Source: a virus. From it: a stretch of DNA of 27,750 bases. Numbering within the stretch: position 1 is the first letter of the stretch; every line of letters starts with the position of its first letter. Positions 1-27,750 of the stretch are shown piece after piece. A program made the position numbers and the translations under genes. Below the pieces are notes generated by a model. The model did no database searches. It was not told the origin of the DNA and saw only the letters and a program-made list of their open reading frames with translations. The stretch is from the UHGV virus genome UHGV-0085994; one strand, written 5' to 3'.

Positions 1-53
1 TCATCGGGCATTATCTGAACATAAAACACTATCAATAAGTTGGAGTCATTACC
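1..53 (+). mobile_element. IS1 right-terminal fragment (last 53 bp of IS1; body of element lies outside the window)
   Basis: Positions 1-53 read TCATCGGGCATTATCTGAACATAAAACACTATCAATAAGTTGGAGTCATTACC, which I recognise as the 3' end of IS1 including the terminal inverted repeat; exact reverse complement is present at the other end of the window. Confidence 0.8.
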
Positions 54-2548: not shown

Positions 2549-3400
2549 ATGATAAATTATGTCTACGGCGAACAACTGTACCAGGAGTTCGTCAGCTTCA
2601 GGGATCTCTTTCTAAAAAAAGCTGTTGCACGCGCCCAACACGTTGATACAGCCAGCGACGGTCGTCCTGTACGCCCGGTTGTCGTTCTACCGTTCAAAGA
2701 AACTGACAGCATTCAGGCTGAAATTGATAAATGGACTTTAATGGCGCGGGAACTGGAACAGTACCCAGACCTCAATATCCCAAAGACTATTTTATATCCA
2801 GTGCCTAACATCCTTCGCGGTGTGCGCAAGGTTACAACTTATCAGACAGAAGCTGTGAACAGCGTCAATATGACCGCTGGCCGTATTATTCATCTGATTG
2901 ATAAGGACATTCGCATCCAAAAAAGCGCGGGGATCAATGAGCACAGTGCGAAATACATAGAGAACCTGGAAGCAACAAAAGAGCTAATGAGGCAGTACCC
3001 GGAGGATGAAAAATTCCGTATGCGTGTACACGGCTTTAGCGAAACAATGCTGCGCGTCCACTACATCTCCAGTAGCCCTAACTACAATGATGGTAAATCA
3101 GTTAGTTACCATGTACCGCTGTGTGGCGTGTTTATCTGCGATGAAACTCTCCGTGATGGAATCATCATCAACGGTGAATTCGAGAAAGCAAAATTTAGCC
3201 TTTATGACTCTATAGAACCGATCATCTGCGACCGCTGGCCGCAGGCAAAAATATATCGCCTGGCAGATATTGAAAATGTAAAAAAACAAATTGCCATCAC
3301 TCGCGAAGAGAAAAAGGTTAAGTCAGCCGCATCAGTTACGCGCAGCCGTAAAACCAAGAAGGGGCAGCCAGTAAACGACAACCCCGAAAGCGCGCAATAA
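2549..3400 (+). CDS. c1: C1 repressor of lysogeny (P1 immC)
   Basis: 283 aa, the length of P1 C1; N-terminus MINYVYGEQLYQEF; preceded by GGAGGA Shine-Dalgarno and an operator cluster; cognate 17-bp operators occur throughout the window. Confidence 0.9.
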   Translation: MINYVYGEQLYQEFVSFRDLFLKKAVARAQHVDTASDGRPVRPVVVLPFKETDSIQAEIDKWTLMARELEQYPDLNIPKTILYPVPNILRGVRKVTTYQTEAVNSVNMTAGRIIHLIDKDIRIQKSAGINEHSAKYIENLEATKELMRQYPEDEKFRMRVHGFSETMLRVHYISSSPNYNDGKSVSYHVPLCGVFICDETLRDGIIINGEFEKAKFSLYDSIEPIICDRWPQAKIYRLADIENVKKQIAITREEKKVKSAASVTRSRKTKKGQPVNDNPESAQ

Positions 3401-3404
3401 ATTA

Positions 3405-3424
3405 TGCCCGGCATCAACCGGGCA
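3405..3424. terminator. bidirectional stem-loop between convergent c1 and ant
   Basis: TGCCCGG-CATCAA-CCGGGCA hairpin flanked by A/T-rich sequence. Confidence 0.45.
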
Positions 3425-3432
3425 TTCTTCCA

Positions 3433-4548
3433 TTATTCAGCCGCCACCGGTTTTAACAAGCCAGCATCGAGCAGTTTACGCGTCAACCACTGCTGGCCTT
3501 TACCCGTTAATTGAGGCGTCAACCGTATCTGGTAGCCATCTTCATCATCCAGCACCACTTCTTTCACCGTGAAATACCCCGCGTTGATGTACTGCTGGAA
3601 CGGCACATTTTTACGTCCACCGGACGCTATCAGGATGCCGTTCTCCCGTAACCAGGCAAACAGCGCGTTTTGCTTAAGTCCAACAACCTTTGCAAAATTC
3701 CCAATCAGGATCCCTTTAGCTACTGATACCCGGTCGGCAAAATCGACTTTAGGAGCGGCGGCCACCAGCTGCTGATTTAGCTGGTGGGCTTTCTGTTCCA
3801 GAAGCTGCTTTTGTTCAGCCAGTTCGGCAGCCAGGCGCAGAGCTTCTGGAAGCGTCTGGGGGATTGCAACCGGTTGCTGTTCTTTTTGTCGGAAGTAGCT
3901 GTCTTCCAGTTTTTCAAAGAATGCCCATGCCTGATCGGTTTCGATCATTTTAGCGTGGCGGGCTGCGCCGCGTTCCGTCCAGAGGATGAGTGAGCGGGCT
4001 TTAGGAGAGATAGGATTTTGTGAGTTACTTAAAGTCACTCGCAAATTGTTCAAATCATCTCCAATAACTTTATAGAAATGCTTGCCTTCACAAAAACGTT
4101 CAGCATTACGGGAAAAGTTCTTCTTGATGTTATCCGCATCTGTCCCATACCCCTTAGCAAGGATCTTAGTTGTCACTACACGCACTCCCAGCCATTCCAG
4201 AACGGGAATTTCATCAGACTGATTCTGAACAACCACCAGCTCCGATTCCTGAACTGAAGGTGCATGAGTTTTTTCTGATTTAACGTTAGTTGCTTTCATT
4301 CTGTGTGCCTCCTTGCGTGTTTCGGCTGCGACGGTTGCGTAATTCAGATGCCCCTGTTCGAGCAGGTATTCGCGGATATCAGACAACAGAATGCGGTGAA
4401 CAGCGTTCTTGTCCTTTCTCCGGTAAAGTTGTTTGGTGATCATGAAGTAGTTGGCAATAACGCCCGGTATATCCCTGGTACTGATACAGGATGTGTGCTG
4501 TTCAATTGCCTCAATCATTTCTTCACGGGTGACTAATGACGTTCTCAT
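3433..4548 (-). CDS. ant: antirepressor Ant (Bro-N/KilA-N-like N-terminal region, KilAC/ANT-like C-terminal domain)
   Basis: 371 aa; translationally coupled to the upstream 73-aa ORF (4-bp overlap); sits downstream of a c4-like antisense arrangement, as in the P1 immI operon. Confidence 0.65.
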   Translation of the reverse strand: MRTSLVTREEMIEAIEQHTSCISTRDIPGVIANYFMITKQLYRRKDKNAVHRILLSDIREYLLEQGHLNYATVAAETRKEAHRMKATNVKSEKTHAPSVQESELVVVQNQSDEIPVLEWLGVRVVTTKILAKGYGTDADNIKKNFSRNAERFCEGKHFYKVIGDDLNNLRVTLSNSQNPISPKARSLILWTERGAARHAKMIETDQAWAFFEKLEDSYFRQKEQQPVAIPQTLPEALRLAAELAEQKQLLEQKAHQLNQQLVAAAPKVDFADRVSVAKGILIGNFAKVVGLKQNALFAWLRENGILIASGGRKNVPFQQYINAGYFTVKEVVLDDEDGYQIRLTPQLTGKGQQWLTRKLLDAGLLKPVAAE

Positions 4549-4766
4549 AGTCCCTCCTGAGCAGAAGCGTTAACAGGGAGGCACCAGTAACTGAGAGAGT
4601 TGCGCGAATCAGTGGAAAAGCGGGCAGAGAAAATGCAGGGAGCGTCAGGAAGCTGAGAACGGGCCTCATCTTCTGTCGGTGCAATAACGAAGTGATAGTG
4701 ACGTTTCTGGCAGGAATAGAAGCGCCAGATGAATTCAGGATGAGTTGGGGTAGGGACAGTAGCCAT
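4545..4766 (-). CDS. icd: Icd-like small protein (immI operon leader gene)
   Basis: 73-aa ORF overlapping ant start; Shine-Dalgarno AAGGAGG coincides with a sequence complementary to the upstream antisense element. Confidence 0.5.
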   Translation of the reverse strand: MATVPTPTHPEFIWRFYSCQKRHYHFVIAPTEDEARSQLPDAPCIFSARFSTDSRNSLSYWCLPVNASAQEGL

Positions 4767-4799
4767 AATGGCAGCCTCCTTTGACTAAGTTAAGGAGCT

Positions 4800-4890
4800 A
4801 CCGCGTGAGGTCTCAATCTCAATGGCGGTAGCACTGACTGGGTTGAGACTACCGGCGTCAAAGGGAACCGGCCTGCCTTTCGGCAGCCCA
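4800..4890 (-). ncRNA. c4: c4-type antisense RNA (candidate), with loops complementary to the icd leader
   Basis: Minus-strand elements GUCUCAA (4843-4849) and CCUUUGAC (4857-4864) lie in two predicted hairpin loops and are complementary to UUGAGA(C) repeats (4810-4823) and GUCAAAGGAGG (4776-4786, icd RBS); same-sense copies lie upstream at 5000-5006 and 4981-4988, giving the a1/b1 - a'/b' - a2/b2 layout described for P1 c4. Boundaries are approximate. Confidence 0.4.
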
Positions 4891-4950
4891 GCCAGCACTA
4901 CCATTGATTTCGGAGCTAAACGCTACGTATGGCTGTGCGATGGCATGACA

Positions 4951-4975
4951 CAAAAAAAGACGCTTTCGGCGTCTG
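4951..4975 (-). terminator. rho-independent terminator (minus strand) downstream of pacB
   Basis: AGACGC-loop-GCGTCT hairpin followed by U7 on the minus strand. Confidence 0.5.
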
Positions 4976-5105
4976 TGTCGCCTTTGACATTATCCGGGGT
5001 CTCAATCCCGGCACCCGTTTTAATGAGGTGCCTGATAAGCATAAACCGAAAATGCCTCAAGGCGCAAGAGGTCAGGTTCAATGTAACATCGGTAGTTAAA
5101 AAACA

Positions 5106-5122
5106 CAATTTATTAGAGCAAA
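5106..5122 (-). promoter_or_regulatory. C1 operator (Op51-like, upstream of c4/icd/ant), 15/17
   Basis: Plus strand CAATTTATTAGAGCAAA. Confidence 0.6.
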
Positions 5123-5125
5123 TAT

Positions 5126-6610
5126 TCATTCATTAAGCCATGCCAGAGCTTCATCAACCTGCGCTTCGTCTTCGACGCTAAGCACTTCATCCTGGGGAAC
5201 ATAATCCGCCAGCATAGCGAAACAATATGTATCCCAATGGTCTGGTGAGTGCAGGTTGAGTTTTTTCTTCATATCCTCCTTACTCATCACCTTCCATTGA
5301 CCTGCGGAGTTAATCCCTACAGGGATTTTCGACGCTTCCTCAATAGTTTCATTACCCTTATCCAGTCTCATACGACCAGATTTTACGGCCTCTGCGGCTT
5401 GAACGTTGGCATAAGCACGTTTATCAAAGTACAGGCTCTTATCTTCACGGCTATGCATCTTTTTACCCCAGCGTATACGCTGTACGGTAATACCATAATA
5501 CTCGTACATCAGATCCGCCGTTGCTTTACCCAGGCCATCGCCGTCTATCGCTATGGTGATATTTGGGAATCGCTCAGGATTACATTCTGCGAAAATTTTG
5601 GCGGCAAGCTGCGTTTCTGTAACGTCTGTGTATTCCAGCATTCGATAGTTGATTACACGGCGTTTATTTCGCTGGCCGGACACCATCATGATATTGATAA
5701 CGGACTTATCCCGTCCCGTACCACCAGCAACGTCCACACATGCAAGCCAGCCCCATCCTTTGGCAATCTTGACTTTCCGCCGCGTCGCACGTTCAACCTC
5801 ATCACGTCCAAGAAGGAAGCCATCCTGTGATTTAGGGAATAGTCCGCGTACCTTAATCATGTACATAGGGTTATCACGCCCGCCGTACTCCGCCAGCTTC
5901 ATTTTGATAAATGCTGGCGTTACCAGCGGTGATTCCTCACTGTTAAGCGTGATCGCCGTATAAACGCCATCAGGGTTACCAGGACGCTTGGCCAGTTTAT
6001 GGTGAGTATCGTAGAAATAGCCGCTTGGGCGTGTAGGCTGTGACAGTAATAAGATGCGGTTATCCTGTCCGGTAAGAGCACCAGTGATGATACCGAAAGC
6101 TCTATCACTGACACCGGAGGCTTCATCGATAATATACAGAAGATGATCTGCGTGTTCACCGGCGAGAGCTTCTTCACTTCCCAGACGAAAGCCCTTCGGT
6201 ACTACAGTCCATACACCTTTACCAGTAACCTCATATAAAGCGGTTTCTGTCAGAACAAAATAATCAGCAAGCCATGGAAAACGGCTGGTGGCAGTAGCCC
6301 AGTTTATCTTGATGTACTTGAATATACCGGTCATTACCTGCTGAATTTTGTTCGCAACGATAATGGCACGGGCACCGGGATACATGATTATGAACAACAT
6401 GATCATGATAGAAGTCATGTCTGATTTCCCGGTACCGTGGCCAGACGAAACAGATGTCTTGCTACCCTGTTCCTGCACAGACTCAATAATCAGATCCTGC
6501 TGCCAGGTAGGTGTTTTGCCGAACAAAACATCAGCGGCCGCAATCCAGTCATAACGATATAGCGCCACCAGCTCGCGCCAACGTGGATCCGTTACGCAAC
6601 TTCTGGCCAT
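5126..6610 (-). CDS. pacB: terminase large subunit (PacB-like)
   Basis: 494 aa, the length of P1 PacB as I recall it; Walker A-like SGHGTGKS; directly downstream of the small-terminase-like ORF. Confidence 0.8.
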
Positions 6611-10513: not shown

Positions 10514-12076
10514 ATGAAAATGACAAGTATTCAACAACGTGCAGAGCTTCATCGTCAAATCTGGCAAATTGCTAACGATGTCAGGGGTTCGGTCGATGGA
10601 TGGGATTTTAAGCAATACGTTCTGGGCGCACTTTTCTACCGTTTTATCAGCGAAAATTTTTCCAGCTATATTGAAGCCGGTGATGACAGTATCTGTTATG
10701 CGAAACTGGATGACAGCGTAATTACTGATGACATTAAAGACGATGCCATCAAAACCAAAGGTTACTTCATCTACCCAAGTCAGCTTTTCTGCAACGTAGC
10801 TGCGAAAGCAAATACCAATGACAGACTGAATGCAGATTTAAACAGTATCTTCGTTGCTATCGAAAGTTCTGCTTACGGTTATCCTTCAGAAGCTGACATC
10901 AAAGGTTTGTTTGCTGATTTCGATACCACCAGTAACCGCCTGGGTAACACCGTTAAAGATAAAAATGCCCGCCTGGCTGCGGTTCTGAAAGGGGTTGAAG
11001 GGTTAAAACTTGGTGACTTCAACGAACATCAGATTGACCTGTTCGGTGATGCCTATGAGTTCCTGATTTCTAACTATGCGGCAAATGCCGGTAAGTCAGG
11101 CGGTGAGTTCTTTACACCGCAGCACGTCTCCAAGCTGATTGCACAACTGGCTATGCACGGGCAGACCAGCGTTAACAAAATCTACGACCCGGCAGCGGGT
11201 TCCGGCTCACTGTTGTTGCAGGCGAAAAAACAGTTTGATAACCACATCATCGAAGAAGGCTTTTTCGGTCAGGAAATCAACCATACGACCTATAACCTGG
11301 CGCGTATGAACATGTTTTTGCACAACATCAACTACGACAAGTTTGATATCAAGCTGGGCAATACGCTGACTGAACCGCACTTCAGAGATGAAAAACCGTT
11401 TGATGCCATCGTTTCTAACCCGCCGTATTCGGTGAAATGGATTGGCAGCGATGACCCGACGCTGATTAACGATGAGCGTTTTGCCCCGGCTGGCGTTCTG
11501 GCCCCCAAATCCAAAGCTGACTTTGCGTTTGTATTACATGCGCTGAACTATCTTTCGGCCAAAGGTCGTGCTGCGATTGTCTGCTTCCCGGGTATTTTTT
11601 ACCGTGGCGGCGCAGAGCAGAAAATCCGTCAGTATCTGGTCGATAATAACTATGTCGAAACCGTAATTTCACTGGCTCCGAACCTGTTCTTTGGCACCAC
11701 CATTGCCGTAAACATTCTGGTTCTGTCCAAACATAAAACGGATACCAACGTTCAGTTTATTGATGCCAGCGAACTGTTCAAAAAAGAGACCAACAACAAT
11801 ATCCTGACCGATGCCCATATCGAACAAATTATGCAGGTATTCACCAGCAAGGAAGATGTTGCTCATCTGGCAAAATCTGTCGCGTTTGAAGCCGTTGTAG
11901 CGAATGACTATAACCTGTCGGTGAGCAGCTATGTAGAATCGAAAGATAACCGCGAAATTATCGATATTGCTGAGCTGAATGCGGAACTGAAAACCACGGT
12001 CAGCAAAATCGACCAGTTGCGCAAAGATATTGATGCGATTGTGGCTGAAATTGAAGGCTGCGAGGTACAGAAATGA
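10514..12076 (+). CDS. hsdM: type I restriction-modification system, DNA methyltransferase subunit HsdM (type IC, EcoR124-like)
   Basis: 520 aa; N6-adenine methyltransferase motif NPPY(SVKW); followed by hsdS with 4-bp overlap. Confidence 0.95.
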
Positions 12077-13221
12077 GCGAGTTGAGTTATCTGGAAAAAT
12101 TGCTGGATGGAGTTAAGGTTGAGTGGAAAACACTAGAGAAAGTGCTTAAACGAACTAAAGGCACAAAAATAACCGCTGGGCAGATGAAAGCTCTTCACAA
12201 AGATAATGCGCCGCTTAAAATTTTTGCAGGGGGAAAAACAGTAGCCTTTGTTGACTTTAAAGATATTCCAGAGAAAGATATTAATAGAGAGCCATCGATC
12301 ATTGTTAAATCCAGAGGTATTATCGAATTCGAGTATTACGATAAACCATTCTCTCACAAAAATGAGATGTGGTCATATCACTCAAATAATGATGCGATAA
12401 GCATAAAGTATATTTATTACTTCCTAAAAATAAATGAAGGATATTTCCAGAAAATTGGGGGTAAAATGCAAATGCCACAAATTGCAACTCCTGATACAGA
12501 TAAGTTTGAAGTTCCAATCCCTTGCCCGGATAATCCGGAAAAATCCCTTGCCATCCAGTCTGAAATCGTTCGGATTCTGGATAAATTTACTGCAGTTACC
12601 GCTGAGCTTACCGCTGAGCTTAACATGCGTAAAAAACAGTACAACTACTATCGCGACCAGTTACTGAATCTTGAGGGCAGGGAAAATACTCGAGAAATGA
12701 GGATAGGTGATATTTATGATTTTCAGTATGGAACAGGCAATACAATTCCTAAATCTGGAGGGCAATATCCTGTTTATGGTAGCAACGGGATTGTAGGCTC
12801 CCATGACAAATATAACAGCGAAGACTCGCCTGTTATTGGTCATATAGGTGCTTACGCAGGAATCGTTAACTGGGGCCAAGGTAAGCATTTTGTTACATAC
12901 AACGGAGTTATTTGTAGGCACAAATCGAAGGAAGTTCTTCAAAAATACGCCTACTATTTATTACTTTTACAAGATTTCGGTTCAAAATCTAATAGTGCAT
13001 CACAGCCTTTTGTTTCATATAACATATTAAATGCTCCTATTGTTTTGGTTCCCCCTTTACAAGAGCAAGCTCGTATCGTCGCAATACTCGATAAATTCGA
13101 CACACTGACCAACTCCATCACCGAAGGTCTCCCGCGTGAAATCGAGTTGCGCCAGAAACAATACGAGTACTATCGTGATTTACTGTTCAGTTTCCCAAAA
13201 CCTGAAACAGCCAGTAATTAA
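12073..13221 (+). CDS. hsdS: type I R-M specificity subunit HsdS (two target-recognition domains; central TAELTAEL repeat)
   Basis: 382 aa; conserved repeats LDKF..(Q/K)QYxYYRD after each TRD; central TAEL x2 as in EcoR124I-type subunits. Confidence 0.95.
12598..12621 (+). repeat. 12-bp tandem direct repeat ACCGCTGAGCTT x2 encoding TAEL-TAEL in hsdS
   Basis: Directly visible; in the EcoR124 family the copy number of this repeat sets the spacer length of the recognition sequence. Confidence 0.75.
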
Positions 13222-20391: not shown

Positions 20392-21211
20392 GGCACTGTT
20401 GCAAAGTTAGCGATGAGGCAGCCTTTTGTCTTATTCAAAGGCCTTACATTTCAAAAACTCTGCTTACCAGGCGCATTTCGCCCAGGGGATCACCATAATA
20501 AAATGCTGAGGCCTGGCCTTTGCGTAGTGCTCGCATCACCTCAATACCTTTGATGGTGGCGTAAGCCGTCTTCATGGATTTAAATCCCAGCGTGGCGCCG
20601 ATTATCCGTTTCAGTTTGCCATGATCGCATTCAATCACGTTGTTCCGGTACTTAATCTGTCGGTGTTCAACGTCAGACGGGCACCGGCCTTCGCGTTTGA
20701 GCAGAGCAAGCGCGCGACCATAGGCGGGCGCTTTATCCGTGTTGATGAATCGCGGGATCTGCCACTTCTTCACGTTGTTGAGGATTTTACCCAGAAACCG
20801 GTATGCAGCTTTGCTGTTACGACGGGAGGAGAGATAAAAATCGACAGTGCGGCCCCGGCTGTCGACGGCCCGGTACAGATACGCCCAGCGGCCATTGACC
20901 TTCACGTAGGTTTCATCCATGTGCCACGGGCAAAGATCGGAAGGGTTACGCCAGTACCAGCGCAGCCGTTTTTCCATTTCAGGCGCATAACGCTGAACCC
21001 AGCGGTAAATCGTGGAGTGATCGACATTCACTCCGCGTTCAGCCAGCATCTCCTGCAGCTCACGGTAACTGATGCCGTATTTGCAGTACCAGCGTACGGC
21101 CCACAGAATGATGTCACGCTGAAAATGCCGGCCTTTGAATGGGTTCATGTGCAGCTCCATCAGCAAAAGGGGATGATAAGTTTATCACCACCGACTATTT
21201 GCAACAGTGCC
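20392..21211 (-). mobile_element. IS26 (IS6 family), complete 820-bp element
   Basis: 14-bp terminal inverted repeats GGCACTGTTGCAAA at 20392-20405 and 21198-21211; encodes Tnp26; no 8-bp target-site duplication in the flanks. Confidence 0.95.
20444..21148 (-). CDS. tnpA: IS26 transposase Tnp26
   Basis: 234 aa from MNPFKGRHFQRDIILWAVRWY...; matches IS26 transposase as recalled. Confidence 0.95.
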   Translation of the reverse strand: MNPFKGRHFQRDIILWAVRWYCKYGISYRELQEMLAERGVNVDHSTIYRWVQRYAPEMEKRLRWYWRNPSDLCPWHMDETYVKVNGRWAYLYRAVDSRGRTVDFYLSSRRNSKAAYRFLGKILNNVKKWQIPRFINTDKAPAYGRALALLKREGRCPSDVEHRQIKYRNNVIECDHGKLKRIIGATLGFKSMKTAYATIKGIEVMRALRKGQASAFYYGDPLGEMRLVSRVFEM

Positions 21212-24200
21212 AATAACCTGTCCGTCTATCTGCATACGACCGGTTGGTTGCTGCAAATCGTTGGCGGCAGTCGTCACCTGGGACGTGGAGGCTGGTTCAG
21301 GCGCATTATTTTTCCGCATCCCCGGCGAGTTGCGGAGTTTATCAAATAGCCCATCAATCCCCATTTGTGCGCCGAGTTGGTCAAAGTAACTTGAGTTGCT
21401 GGCCACCGGACGCGCCTCTTCAACTGGCATCGGAGTATCAACATACACATTGCCAGCTGCTGTTGCGGTCCCCTTCCCTCGTGCACGTTCTTCGAGCGTT
21501 CCCTGAACGACTTCCCGACGCATACCCCGGCCATTCATGAATTTGTTGACCAGATCGTTAACGCCAACAGCATTGCCAATTTTGTCTACCAGACCGCCTT
21601 TCTCAAACGGGCTATCACCAGGGGTAAACGCCAGGCCAGTAGACTGATCGATAACAGCGTTATCAGGCAGTGGTCCCCTCACTCCATATTGCGCCCCACC
21701 CTGTGCTCCTGCTCCAGGTGTATAGATTTCACCACCTAAATAGCGAGCACGATGAGTATTGACCTTGATCGCGTACTCACGGTTTTCTTTCGATAAGTCA
21801 CCTGTGCCTTTTTTCCACTTATTGATAGTGCCAAACCCAGCATTATATGCAGTGATGGCCTCGTTTAAGTCTCCATTGGCTTGCTTCAGATATTTGCTCA
21901 TGAGAAGAGCCGCAGCTTCTGCCGATTTCACAGGATCAAACGATTCACCTTCAGCTAAGCCAGTCTCTTCACGAGCAATCCCCGTGAACTGAAACATCCC
22001 CAGAGCACCGGTTTGGGATTTTGCATACGGATTACCACCAGATTCAGTTGCAGCAATCGCGTAAAGAGTGCCTTCTGGAAGACCGTATTTATTCTCTAGT
22101 TCGGCAAAATACGGAGCCAACTTATCGAGATTTGCCTTACCTTCAGCGCCAAGACTTCCGACTTTTACATCCAAGTTGCCATTGTTGTAGGTATCCGCAG
22201 CTTTCTGAATGTCATTCCTGGTGCCAGTGGTATTAAGCGACGATGATGACGAGCTATTTTGACCAATAGCTTTATCAATTTTCTGCAACGCGCTATTGCC
22301 CGTTTCTACGGCATTTGCATTGATAATCTGATTAGCAGTTTCTTTAACTGTTTTATTGCTATCTTTCGCCGTGTCCAGTGCCGCATTTATCACGCGGGTA
22401 ACAATATTAGTCTGTTTGGCATCGGATTCAGTTTTAGAATCAGATGTCTCCTGGTGGCTATTAACCGGAGCTTTTAACTCTGGAGTGATTTCTTTCGCAT
22501 TAGCCTCGCCGATCGGATTGGGTATTTTTGATACAATCATTGCCGCAGGGGTATTTTTAACGGCATCAACCGCTGCATCTAATGCTTTACCTGGTAAATT
22601 TTTAACCCCATCCCAAATATTACCAGCCGCCTCTTTAATGTGTTTCCCTGGGTTCTTAATGAAATCAATTGCACTATCAATTGCATCACTGAAAACCTGT
22701 TTCAGGTTATCGACAGTAAAGAAGTCTTTGATGGCATCCAGCTTTTCAAGCAGCTTATTAGATGTATCGCTAAACCATGCTGAAACAGCATCACCAATCT
22801 TTGCTGTGTAATCATCGAACTTGGTAGAAATGGTGTCGCCAAGGTTAGAAATATATGTTTCTAAGTTGGTAATCCCACTATCAATGGCATGGGCAATACT
22901 TTCCGTCGAAAATGATTGCAACATATTGCCGATATCCTCAAATCCAAGTGATTTGAGAACCTCACCAATGGCGCTGCTAATACCAGATACCAGTCCCCCC
23001 ATATCAAGAATATTAGCTAACGTATAAGCGGCTTTTTGCTGGAATGATGGATCTTGTCCTGATTTAAGCCCAAACGCTCGACGTTGCGCTTCTGTATCAT
23101 TCCAACCGGTTACCGCATCATAAATACCTCCAACCACTGTGCCGACTAGGGGAATTGCGCGTAACGCCCCTTTACCAACTGCCTTTAATCCAAGTTTACC
23201 TGCTGCCCGGGCAGCCAAATCTCCGCCTTCATGGGCGAGAGTCTTCTTACCACCACCGCGTAGCATTCCTACAAGTTTCTTTGCCCCCAGAGCGCCAAAA
23301 GCGAGTGCTCCAGCTTTTTTCAGCATGCCACGCCCCATTAACAACGACGCGATGCCACCGGCCCCCTTCCCTAACAGGCTAAATAGTTTGGACAGCAAGC
23401 CGCCCTTCTTTTTCCCGGTGTTTTTGGCTATCTGATCAAGGGCGCTGAGAATCTTGTCATTGCCCTCTTTAATTTCGCTGGTCTGCTCCTGAAGTTCCTG
23501 AACCGTCCGTTTTTGGGTGTTAACCTGAACGACATCGGCACTATTTTGCGATTTACGCCTAAAAAAACCTTTTCTACGGCTGTTATCGTCATTGCCACGA
23601 ATCACATCGGCAATAGACTTTCTGGCACCATTAAGCGATCCGCCAACTTCTTTTGATATCCCGCCAAGCTCCTTCCCTGCTGCCCACAATGGACCTGCAA
23701 CGGCATAACCTAACGCATCGACAGCACGAGTCTCTGAAGGGTTACCTATGCCTTCAGCTACTTTTGACAGTTTTTTTAATAAACCTGATTCAGCATTTAG
23801 ACGCTCATCATCCTCTTTTCGCCTGGCCTTTTCTGCTCGTTCAGCACGGGCATCTTCCGCTGCGGCCTTACTCCCTGACTTTCCAATAAAACGACCACGC
23901 GCATCGCGTTGGTTTTGGCTTTTTTGCGCACCGCCTTTTTGACCGAACATTTCGCGAGCGTGTTCGGCTGCTTCGGTCCGTTGTGCCTTTACATCCTCTG
24001 GTATAGCCTTCCTGCGTCGTTTTTTACCCTTTGGTGTGGTTGATTTGGCCCGCTGTTCCTGTTGAGCAACATCTTCCTGAACTACACGAGAAACGTCCCC
24101 TAAATTAAGCCGTTTCATTGCCTCAACAATAGGGTCCACTGATGGCGCATTGGCCACAAAGTCTGGCCGGGAATTTTCGATTGTGCGATTTAATGCCGAC

Positions 24201-24352
24201 ACACTGCGAGAGACAGGATCAACAGTTGCAACGCGTCCCCCTTTCAAATCTTCAACAGCTTCCCGGATACCTGCAAGCTCTTCCAGCTCTTTTGCACTGG
24301 CGGTTTCAACTGTCCTTATAACATCGTCAATGTTGGCGTTTTTTCTTTCCAT
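21185..24352 (-). CDS. sit: Sit-like structural injection transglycosylase (tape-measure-like), 3'-truncated by IS26
   Basis: 1055-aa ORF; lytic transglycosylase motif AIAATESGG..GALGMFQF; the last codons of the ORF read into IS26 (element ends at 21211), and P1 Sit is longer as I recall it. Confidence 0.8.
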   Translation of the reverse strand: MERKNANIDDVIRTVETASAKELEELAGIREAVEDLKGGRVATVDPVSRSVSALNRTIENSRPDFVANAPSVDPIVEAMKRLNLGDVSRVVQEDVAQQEQRAKSTTPKGKKRRRKAIPEDVKAQRTEAAEHAREMFGQKGGAQKSQNQRDARGRFIGKSGSKAAAEDARAERAEKARRKEDDERLNAESGLLKKLSKVAEGIGNPSETRAVDALGYAVAGPLWAAGKELGGISKEVGGSLNGARKSIADVIRGNDDNSRRKGFFRRKSQNSADVVQVNTQKRTVQELQEQTSEIKEGNDKILSALDQIAKNTGKKKGGLLSKLFSLLGKGAGGIASLLMGRGMLKKAGALAFGALGAKKLVGMLRGGGKKTLAHEGGDLAARAAGKLGLKAVGKGALRAIPLVGTVVGGIYDAVTGWNDTEAQRRAFGLKSGQDPSFQQKAAYTLANILDMGGLVSGISSAIGEVLKSLGFEDIGNMLQSFSTESIAHAIDSGITNLETYISNLGDTISTKFDDYTAKIGDAVSAWFSDTSNKLLEKLDAIKDFFTVDNLKQVFSDAIDSAIDFIKNPGKHIKEAAGNIWDGVKNLPGKALDAAVDAVKNTPAAMIVSKIPNPIGEANAKEITPELKAPVNSHQETSDSKTESDAKQTNIVTRVINAALDTAKDSNKTVKETANQIINANAVETGNSALQKIDKAIGQNSSSSSSLNTTGTRNDIQKAADTYNNGNLDVKVGSLGAEGKANLDKLAPYFAELENKYGLPEGTLYAIAATESGGNPYAKSQTGALGMFQFTGIAREETGLAEGESFDPVKSAEAAALLMSKYLKQANGDLNEAITAYNAGFGTINKWKKGTGDLSKENREYAIKVNTHRARYLGGEIYTPGAGAQGGAQYGVRGPLPDNAVIDQSTGLAFTPGDSPFEKGGLVDKIGNAVGVNDLVNKFMNGRGMRREVVQGTLEERARGKGTATAAGNVYVDTPMPVEEARPVASNSSYFDQLGAQMGIDGLFDKLRNSPGMRKNNAPEPASTSQVTTAANDLQQPTGRMQIDGQVIGTVANSRW

Positions 24353-26727: not shown

Positions 26728-27540
26728 CTATTTTAATTCTATGTAATTTTTAAATTCTCCCTCATATTTATACATGATGCTATCAAATCCTTCCATTACA
26801 TCAACGAATTGTTGTGAACATTCCGGCTTCCAAGGCGTACACTTACGAACCATATCCATTTTTTTCTTATCCTTCGTTGTATCGACTAAGGATAGGTACC
26901 CTATAAAATTCATCATCTGAACAGGATCTTGATTTGTGAATATATATTTGACGTTTTGCTTAGTAGGCGAAAAAGAATCAAAAGCAGGGAACATATATTC
27001 ACCAGAAAAAGAGAGTGCAGCATCAATGACGTCTGTTGCAGGAGTGCAGTTGCTCAGAATTGGCACTAAGCTAAAATTAGCACCTGAGCACACTGCATAT
27101 ATATCATCCCCTTTTTTTAGTTTTAACAGAGAGTCTTGCTTTGAATCCAATATTTTCAATTTGATATAATTTAGTGGCGTTGCATTTTCCCCTGGAGTAA
27201 ATAACTCTACAATTGGTTTATTATTCACCATTCTTATGGATTTTATTTCACCATACACAATTGGAATTGTGTTCCATTTTTCCTGAGCAGCAAATTCATT
27301 ATCTTTAAAATCATTAACCAACTCAGATGGCAAATGATAACCAAATTGATTGTTCATTGCTTTCGAAGCAAATCCAGACAAATAGAATGCCCTTACTAAA
27401 TCATAATCTTTCTTTGAGGTAGAAAGCCAATCTGGCAATTTATTATCAGCTATCGCGCTTCCAGCAAAAATAGCACAACAAAATGTTATTACATTAAATA
27501 ATTTCATTTTCCATTCACTCATTAATCGGTTTAAACTCAC
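26728..27540 (-). CDS. hypothetical secreted/periplasmic protein (N-terminal signal peptide), AT-rich cargo gene
   Basis: 270 aa; hydrophobic signal MKLFNVITFCCAIFAGSAIA; region strongly AT-rich compared with the phage backbone. Confidence 0.55.
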   Translation of the reverse strand: MSLNRLMSEWKMKLFNVITFCCAIFAGSAIADNKLPDWLSTSKKDYDLVRAFYLSGFASKAMNNQFGYHLPSELVNDFKDNEFAAQEKWNTIPIVYGEIKSIRMVNNKPIVELFTPGENATPLNYIKLKILDSKQDSLLKLKKGDDIYAVCSGANFSLVPILSNCTPATDVIDAALSFSGEYMFPAFDSFSPTKQNVKYIFTNQDPVQMMNFIGYLSLVDTTKDKKKMDMVRKCTPWKPECSQQFVDVMEGFDSIMYKYEGEFKNYIELK

Positions 27541-27709
27541 TAATTAATTCACCAAGACTATTTGGGTATGCTTTATAAATAACATACTCCGAAGAGCCAT
27601 CTGAATATTGGTAAGCCCCATAACAGATCAGTTTATTTATTCCTTTCTGAATAGTTTTTTGATTATAAGAATCAACCACTGTTATTCCATATGACGGTAA
27701 TGACTCCAA
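27515..27709 (-). CDS. hypothetical ORF fragment, 5' end disrupted by IS1 (only in-frame start is a TTG inside the IS1 terminus)
   Basis: 64-aa ORF with no internal Met; its 3' end overlaps the start of the 270-aa gene. Confidence 0.3.
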   Translation of the reverse strand: MESLPSYGITVVDSYNQKTIQKGINKLICYGAYQYSDGSSEYVIYKAYPNSLGELISEFKPINE

Positions 27710-27750
27710 CTTATTGATAGTGTTTTATGTTCAGATAATGCCCGATGACT
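27696..27750 (-). mobile_element. IS1 right-terminal fragment (55 bp), inverted relative to the copy at 1-53
   Basis: GGTAATGACTCCAACTTATTGATAGTGTTTTATGTTCAGATAATGCCCGATGACT, recognised as the IS1 terminus. Confidence 0.8.

Follow-up and report, generated by a model that had tools for sequence, protein, structure and literature searches.

A second immI-type c4-icd-ant cassette between c1 and pacB of P1-like phage-plasmids: a probable C1-controlled antirepressor switch

Introduction

The immI locus of phages P1 and P7 specifies an Ant protein that binds and inactivates the C1 repressor and a C4 RNA that is matured by RNase P. The Ant proteins of P1 form an antirepressor complex, and their synthesis is repressed by the antisense RNA c4 (PMC8546580); P1 and P7 are heteroimmune through c4 (PMC12197685; PMC6906374). 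The annotation of the P1 reference sequence (NC_005856) places the operator Op51, two promoters and the elements a1, b1, c4, a2 and b2 on the 5' side of icd-ant, and kilA and repL on the 3' side. Here we analyze a 1.69-kb unit (positions 3433-5125) located between the c1 and pacB genes in a 27,750-nucleotide stretch of the virus genome UHGV-0085994, hereafter the window. This unit is probably a self-contained immI-type cassette that acts as a second, orthogonal antirepressor and immunity switch under C1 control.

A comparable arrangement has been described in the Gifsy-1 prophage, where transcription gives both a short, terminated IsrK RNA and a read-through mRNA, an RNA of ~80 nucleotides complementary to IsrK is produced by processing, and IsrK activates in trans the translation of the downstream antirepressor by translational coupling (PMC4825925). 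Both the trans activation of the long transcript and the binding of Hfq come from experiments in Salmonella (PMC4825925).

An ant insertion between pacB and c1 was mentioned for pTZ20_1P and RCS47 by Venturini et al. (2019; PMC6906374). It involves the same locus and genes as those analyzed here, RCS47 being 99.6% identical over the cassette, but that account treats the insertion of open reading frames (ORFs) only, without the C4 RNA, the IsrK-type leader, the operator, the a and b targets or the specificity types. The RCS47 record likewise annotates only ant at the c1-pacB site, and we found no literature description of the cassette as a complete RNA-controlled module (the P1 and D6 genome papers lay outside the search). 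The c1-pacB cassette is hence best introduced as a common and already noted polymorphism, and as a member of the known c4/IsrK-icd-ant class of antirepressor modules.

Results and Discussion

Gene order between c1 and pacB

The ORF list of the window and the Rfam matches give the order c1, 32 bp, ant, icd, C4 RNA, a leader with a C1 operator-like site, and the pacB stop codon (5126). The flanking genes are the following.

2549-3400, plus strand: c1 repressor gene (immC), left flank; ORF of 283 amino acids, at a match annotated as c1 in RCS47 and P1
5126-6610, minus strand: pacB, encoding the terminase B subunit, right flank, in the same orientation as the cassette; ORF matching RCS47 and P1

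Collinearity between the window and P1 extends to the c1 stop codon and resumes at the pacB stop codon. These two stop codons lie 24 bp apart in NC_005856, and the unit at 3433-5125 substitutes for this spacer only, from stop codon to stop codon. The P1 icd and ant genes are at 48.5-49.7 kb, with ant ~45 kb from c1/pacB. An earlier note, made from the letters of this DNA without database searches, had described immC and immI as distant on the P1 map, a description that proves right, as the reference annotation shows no c1-ant adjacency. The gene order it reported, with ant beside c1 and the c4 region abutting the pacB stop, is borne out by ORFs, homology and Rfam, and its span of 3433-5125 coincides exactly with the limits of the extra DNA relative to P1; the gap between c1 and ant, given there as 33 bp, is in fact 32 bp (3401-3432).

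Compared with the immI locus of P1 and P7, the cassette has the same order of parts, an operator-like site over the first promoter, a C4 of the same family with b' in a loop and a' unpaired, targets duplicated upstream and over the icd ribosome-binding site, an Icd that is 80% identical, overlapping icd and ant genes, a nested Ant2 start at Met84 and a KilAC C-terminus. It differs in its location (the c1-pacB spacer instead of sim-kilA), in the absence of kilA-repL (the lytic replicon) 3' of its ant, in its leader, which is of the isrK family (RF01394) and not of the c4-a1b1 family (RF03163), in its recognition sequences and in the ORF6N domain at the center of Ant.

The C4 RNA and its target sites

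The P1 immI feature table (NC_005856) was the reference for a position-by-position alignment of the cassette parts, which located the antisense RNA and both sets of targets as follows.

4821-4908, minus strand: C4 antisense RNA; full-length match to Rfam RF01695, 75.4 bits (gathering score 45), E = 2.8e-13
4843-4849, minus strand: a' (GTCTCAA), unpaired stretch of C4
4857-4864, minus strand: b' (CCTTTGAC), second hairpin loop of C4
4810-4816, minus strand: a2 target (TTGAGAC), perfect complement of a'
4778-4785, minus strand: b2 target (GTCAAAGG), overlapping the icd Shine-Dalgarno sequence; perfect complement of b', in the same relative position as P1 b2
4999-5005, minus strand: a1 (TTGAGAC), in a hairpin loop of the leader (motif coordinates)
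4981-4988, minus strand: b1 (GTCAAAGG), in the leader (motif coordinates)

The C4 sequence folds with a minimum free energy of -46.5 kcal/mol (z = -5.3), in agreement with the family consensus fold. At the positions annotated in P1, Watson-Crick pairing is complete, over 7/7 positions of a' with a1 as well as a2 and over 8/8 positions of b' with b1 as well as b2. The elements were read by anchor-based extraction and a cross-pairing matrix, a joint MAFFT alignment having put cassette and canonical motifs out of register. In P1 the elements are TTGACAG (a) and GTTAGTGA/C (b), and in P7 and the canonical loci of RCS47 and pB3-L they are TTAGCAG (a) and GATTGTGA/C (b). Among 36 cassette copies at the c1-pacB site, four specificity types were read.

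Type W: a TTGAGAC, b GTCAAAGG; the window, RCS47, pB3-L and 4 IMG/VR contigs
Type J: a TTGAGAC, b GCAAAAGG; JL22 and 6 contigs, with the second module of D6, at its own site, being of the same type
Type K: a TTGGAAC, b GCAAAAGG; 2 contigs
Type R: a1 TTGGCCT, a2 TTGGTCT, b GTCTAAGG; 673R5 and 19 other copies on 18 IMG/VR contigs

The three copies of each element change in concert in types W, J and K, where pairing remains perfect; type R maintains pairing by means of G-U wobbles, located at a'-a2 and in both pairs formed by b' with its b targets. The parts of the cassette, their order, the exact complementarity and this co-variation are read directly from the sequences. Because a1/a'/a2 and b1/b'/b2 co-vary with pairing kept, the three-way compensatory variation is the strongest evidence that selection probably acts on the RNA switch. 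On an alternative view, the cassette regulates nothing and is a moron remnant, a passenger that is inert or in decay. This view could appeal to the dispensability of the cassette, given that P1 and P7 do without it, and to the several IMG/VR copies that are disrupted or duplicated. We nonetheless regard it as very improbable: compensatory changes over four types would hardly arise unless RNA-RNA pairing were selected, icd and ant are intact with overlapping frames, and both the internal Ant2 start and the operator-like site are conserved.

In register, the window C4 pairs with P1 targets at 5/7 (a) and 6/8 (b) positions and with P7 targets at 4/7 and 4/8. The corresponding values for P1 against P7, which are heteroimmune, are 6/7 and 6/8, and the window C4 does no better against either. 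The three-way compensatory variation also indicates that the cassette switch would operate without cross-talk to the canonical switch in the same genome. Since its recognition elements differ from those of both P1 and P7, the cassette would confer a second orthogonal immunity and anti-immunity specificity.

Canonical loci vary as well. In the canonical immI of JL22, the a element is that of P1 and the b element that of P7, and the canonical immI of 673R5 has the P7 a element together with a new b' loop (TCATTCGT) and an imperfect upstream b1 copy. In the first module of D6, the P1 a element is found with another new b' loop (TCGTAAGT).

A 39-codon ORF (MVVLAGLPKGRPVPFDAGSLNPVSATAIEIETSRGSSLT; 4785-4904, minus strand) has its AUG within the 5' end of c4 and its stop codon within b2, immediately 5' of icd. 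It coincides with c4 and occupies the position of orf45 of the Gifsy-1 isrK locus, for which conservation of the nucleotide but not of the amino-acid sequence has been reported. By analogy, orf45 may really be a C4-like RNA.

An extra copy of immI

The same cassette is found in the same place in RCS47 (99.6% identity), JL22 (91%), vB_EcoM-673R5 (89%) and plasmid pB3-L (100%). Three of these genomes (RCS47, JL22 and 673R5) also hold the canonical locus in full, matching 99-100% of the P1 Op51-to-repL sequence at 96-97.7% identity, and pB3-L carries canonical ant, kilA and repL at 62.1-65.0 kb besides the cassette. The cassette and P1 icd/ant share only ~75% DNA identity, and kilA-repL is absent 3' of the cassette ant, where a hairpin and the convergent c1 gene are found instead.

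PLSDB was searched with a chimeric query joining the cassette-specific 5' part of ant to P1 kilA, which matched 948 places in 578 records; an evenly spread sample of 60 of the 578 was then read by megablast for kilA and the cassette part. In this sample, 26 records had kilA and at least one further place, counted as cassette, 26 had kilA only and 7 the cassette only; a few records had three or four matching places, and the extra place was taken as the cassette part. P1 kilA was present in ~26/33 (~80%) of the cassette carriers sampled.

The canonical site of the replicon under study is not visible in the window. Positions 26742-27701 are 99% identical to P1 46800-47759 (simC and simB'), after which the insertion sequence (IS) IS1 interrupts simB at P1 coordinate ~47,759, ~385 bp short of the canonical Op51 position. 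Megablast of the near-whole window against PLSDB and all complete E. coli genomes returned no record covering more than 85% of it.

Relocation of immI is not supported, because the relatives keep both loci and the cassette sequence diverges from canonical immI; by sequence comparison, the cassette is a divergent paralogue of canonical immI, present as a second copy in the complete relatives checked. The earlier note had proposed a different genome organization or a rearrangement uniting the two immunity loci. The organization does differ from that of P1, but the idea of a relocation finds no support, since the relatives retain both loci. The note's question of whether kilA-repL is present elsewhere can be answered for 4/4 complete relatives, which have these genes at the usual place; in the replicon of the window, the corresponding site would lie beyond the simB::IS1 junction.

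A single immI locus translocated beside immC by genome rearrangement, with kilA-repL and the old immI site separated or lost, would be in keeping with a visibly rearranged replicon, in which IS26 joins the pmgP side to a truncated sit gene and IS1 cuts simB and leaves the canonical locus out of view, and with the ~7/33 cassette carriers in the PLSDB sample in which megablast detected no P1 kilA. Such an event is nevertheless exceedingly improbable in view of the ~75% DNA identity, the other leader family, the other recognition loops and the chimeric Ant of the cassette, and of the presence of both loci in RCS47, JL22, 673R5 and pB3-L. Moreover, 281 plasmids, 3 phages and 32 IMG/VR contigs all have the cassette borders precisely at the stop codons of c1 and pacB, a pattern that does not resemble a one-off IS-mediated event.

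Leader RNA, promoters and operator

The region between c4 and the pacB stop codon contains a leader RNA match and elements that align with the control region of P1 immI.

5106-5122, minus strand: C1 operator-like 17-mer (TTTGCTCTAATAAATTG); 15/17 consensus matches, aligned with P1 Op51, 3 nucleotides from the pacB stop
5080-5108, minus strand: P51a-like promoter (TTGTGT-N17-TACATT), its -35 hexamer overlapping the operator; aligned with P1 P2c4/P51a and Oc4/Op51
5038-5067, minus strand: P51b-like promoter (TTGCGC-N18-TATGCT); aligned with the annotated P1 promoter P1c4/P51b
4953-5031, minus strand: IsrK-type leader RNA; Rfam RF01394, 60.2 bits (gathering score 50)
4958-4974, minus strand: leader terminator hairpin followed by seven U (terminator scan)

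Operator-like sites number 7 in the window, against 0.24 expected by chance. A predicted C1 operator overlaps the upstream promoter, as in P1 immI, and the predicted start of the P51b-like promoter (~5031) is the first base of the isrK match. No terminator was detected between the pacB stop and the operator; given this and the co-orientation of the cassette with pacA-pacB, late transcription from pacA-pacB may enter the cassette.

The leaders of P1 and P7 match Rfam c4-a1b1 (RF03163; 51-55 bits), a type that the cassette leader lacks, and isrK (RF01394) is matched by the leaders of cassette types W, J and K and of the second D6 module. The leader of type R (673R5), the commonest cassette type, scores below the Rfam gathering score for both isrK and c4-a1b1; this copy has a 21-nucleotide deletion between leader and c4 and keeps a1, b1 and the terminator.

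Two plus-strand ORFs (4929-5099 and 4822-5136) are labeled 'ash family protein' or 'probable transcriptional regulator' in other records. They have no Pfam or NCBIfam match and overlie the two conserved RNA genes, and were set aside as probable annotation artefacts.

The closest relative of the RNA part is the second c4-icd-ant module of D6 (NC_050154, ~74.0-75.5 kb, orf82-84), with 86-94% DNA identity over the leader, c4 and the start of icd, and with both an isrK-type leader match and a C4 match. Its recognition type is J, that of the JL22 cassette, and its b element differs from that of the window by 2 nucleotides. The D6 module is flanked by pmgF-like and ref-like genes, its upstream region has no aligning C1-operator sequence, and its Ant is of the Rha, helix-turn-helix type, without KilAC. 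D6 as a whole has two c4-icd-ant modules (in the regions 18.3-23.7 kb and 71.0-79.5 kb), with Roi-like and Rha-like Ants; the first has a P1-type leader and adjoins repL, and the second has the IsrK-type leader.

Going by the published description, the cassette also resembles the IsrK-orf45/STnc1160-AnrP locus of Gifsy-1 in Salmonella, with a leader small RNA of the same family carrying a terminator, followed by a complementary RNA and a coupled antirepressor. As in IsrK modules, an RF01394 leader with its own Rho-independent terminator stands directly 5' of icd-ant. Gifsy-1 differs in being a lambdoid prophage, in an output of AntQ-mediated antitermination and not C1 inactivation, and in having no C1 operator. 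The cassette also links P1 c4 and Salmonella IsrK as one modular design of leader decoy, antisense RNA and coupled antirepressor.

Icd and a chimeric antirepressor

The coding part of the cassette comprises two overlapping genes, one of them with an internal start, followed by a hairpin.

4545-4766, minus strand: icd, 73 amino acids; 80% identity to P1 Icd (E = 3e-41), NCBIfam NF033153 (phage_ICD_like)
3433-4548, minus strand: ant (Ant1-like), 371 amino acids; BLASTP against P1 Ant1 E = 1e-128, 54% overall
3433-4299, minus strand: Ant2-like frame from an in-frame internal start at Met84; conserved Shine-Dalgarno sequence (AAGGAGG) and ATG at 4297-4314
3404-3425, minus strand: G+C-rich hairpin, a putative bidirectional terminator closing the cassette where ant and c1 converge; ATGCCCGGTTGATGCCGGGCAT then AATTTATT (terminator scan)

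The icd stop codon overlaps the ant start codon (ATGA, 4545-4548), an overlap that implies probable translational coupling of the two genes. Within Ant, residues 1-85 resemble the N-terminus of P1 Ant1 (~62% identity), residues 117-201 form an ORF6N domain (Pfam PF10543, 3.9e-18) and residues 259-360 a KilAC/ANT domain (Pfam PF03374, 1.8e-31) within a P1-like stretch (228-369) of ~90% identity. In the alignment, the P1 ant2 start (codon 84) falls opposite an RKEAHRM motif and Met84, and the DNA of the ORF6N part is ~71% identical to ant/roi genes of lambdoid and Shiga toxin (Stx) phages. By these alignments, the cassette Ant is a chimera in which an ORF6N domain separates an N-terminus of P1 Ant1 type from a P1-like KilAC C-terminus.

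The exchanged middle domain leaves room for another target. The cassette Ant might be aimed, via ORF6N, at the repressors of co-resident prophages, for example lambdoid ones, as a weapon against or sensor for unrelated phages. The similarity of the ORF6N DNA to Ant/Roi genes of Stx and lambdoid phages points in this direction, as does the D6 module, where the same RNA type is combined with a Rha/Roi-type Ant and the effector therefore seems interchangeable. This reading is unlikely all the same: the 85 N-terminal and ~140 C-terminal residues, the latter ~90% identical, remain P1 Ant-like, and expression is wired to a C1 operator-like site, as in P1 immI.

Proposed function of the cassette

Taking the cassette as a probable second switch of the immI type, we infer RNA processing, repression, an Ant-C1 interaction and an immunity phenotype from the parallel with P1 immI and Gifsy-1 IsrK. 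Processing of the leader transcript in a lysogen would yield C4, which would pair through a' and b' with a2 and b2, blocking the translation of icd and, via coupling, the synthesis of the Ant1- and Ant2-like proteins; the a1 and b1 sites of the leader would be decoys able to titrate C4, and the upstream promoter would be dampened by operator-bound C1. Where C4 is absent or mismatched, as in an infected cell whose resident makes a different C4, Icd and Ant would be made and C1 inactivated. Inactivation of C1 is presumably the output, given the P1-like termini of Ant. A genome with two c4 types would repress incoming relatives carrying either type and, as an invader, would express at least one Ant in any resident lacking either type.

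Several points weigh against this interpretation. With a lambdoid-type ORF6N domain in place of its central third, Ant may or may not bind C1. Between types W and J, the a element is the same and the b element differs by 2 nucleotides, so that not every pair of types need be orthogonal. Both promoters are assigned by homology to P1 only, a strict sigma-70 consensus scan having found no promoter in the leader, and the leader terminator could stop most transcripts before c4. Finally, the parent replicon is rearranged by IS elements and, as a possibly defective prophage, may no longer depend on the switch.

Distribution and history of the cassette

The full stretch from the end of c1 through the cassette to the end of pacB is held by 281 PLSDB plasmids; a synthetic junction query found the cassette-less junction of P1 type in 314 of the 703 PLSDB plasmids with the flanks. 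The junction of pacB stop and operator occurs on 32 IMG/VR contigs. SJ46, phiW39 and 813R1 have c1/pacB sequences ~97% identical to those of the window and no cassette, and NZ_CP070907.1 retains a ~400-bp remnant with a KilAC fragment between c1 and pacB. Inspection of the cassette borders found no direct repeats, target duplications, recombinase genes or transposase genes, and transposition was rejected as the mechanism of gain on the grounds that the borders lack repeats, target duplications and recombinase genes. Homologous recombination through the conserved flanks, with gains, losses and swaps of type, fits best.

Individual IMG/VR contigs carry altered copies: in one (L025) the front end of the cassette is partly duplicated in tandem, the junctions lying 1566 bp from each other, a second (L041) has ~1.3 kb inserted between icd and ant, and a third (L024) has a second, inverted partial ant-icd copy.

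The cassette could have been gained by later insertion into a 24-bp spacer, or could be ancestral to the P1-like backbone, with P1, P7 and SJ46 as deletion derivatives. An ancestral cassette is possible, if rather doubtful. It would agree with borders free of transposase genes, repeats and target duplications, with about equal numbers of carriers and non-carriers (281 versus 314), and with the NZ_CP070907.1 remnant, which shows that deletions occur at the slot; the ~9-11% distance between cassette types, when the flanks of the same phages are ~3% from the window, suggests long residence. On the other hand, the absence of the cassette from the ~97% identical backbones of SJ46, phiW39 and 813R1 implies that its presence changes on short time scales, homologous exchange through conserved flanks explains either direction, and the 24-bp P1 spacer holds no clear leftover of a cassette end beyond a 7-nucleotide CCGGCAT match.

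Wider implications

P1-like phage-plasmids often carry extended-spectrum beta-lactamase (ESBL), mcr-1 and other resistance genes in E. coli and Salmonella, and superinfection, induction and exclusion among them determine how these genes spread. If the cassette is indeed a second orthogonal switch, immunity groups would be set by two RNA specificities instead of the single P1-versus-P7 distinction in use since the 1990s, and typing schemes and P1-based delivery vectors would need to account for it.

At least four specificity types occur in the slot and at least five at the canonical site, and their combinations differ in RCS47, JL22, 673R5, pB3-L and D6. It is a tenable conjecture, although we would stop somewhat short of calling it probable, that the two independently diversifying RNA lock-and-key loci (immI and the c1-pacB slot) form a combinatorial immunity barcode in P1-like phage-plasmids, with the slot swapped by recombination and under negative frequency-dependent selection. 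Under this scheme, the slot would be exchanged among co-infecting elements by homologous recombination through the c1/pacB flanks, and a rare c4 type would escape resident immunity and exclude fewer competitors, which would generate the negative frequency dependence. Such a barcode would explain the presence of the cassette in ~40% of P1-like plasmids, as well as patterns of co-residence and exclusion that neither c1 nor replicon type predicts. The gene order itself is of modest interest, and the two-locus combinatorial code is the more interesting possibility.

Remainder of the window

The same terminal ~53 bp of IS1 are present in inverted orientation at the two ends of the window (1-53 and 27696-27750), bracketing a 27.6-kb P1-derived segment. 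The ATCC 98082 plasmid NZ_CP034659 has the identical simB::IS1 junction followed by corA, and a different arrangement elsewhere. An 820-bp segment (20392-21211) is 99.4% identical to the IS26-transposase region of pB3-L and appears to be a complete IS26. Through it, the late-gene region is connected on its pmgP side to a sit gene truncated at the 5' end (transglycosylase ORF 21185-24352, 1055 amino acids). Because of this junction, the P1 backbone is rearranged or deleted at IS26, and the element is possibly defective.

A type I restriction-modification system (hsdM, hsdS and hsdR) extends from 10514-12076 (plus strand) to ~17.6 kb, between phd-doc/humD-like and pmg genes. Its hsdS part (~12126-13114) has no match in pB3-L and its hsdM is only ~95% identical to that of pB3-L, and hsdS may on this account be a variable specificity subunit.

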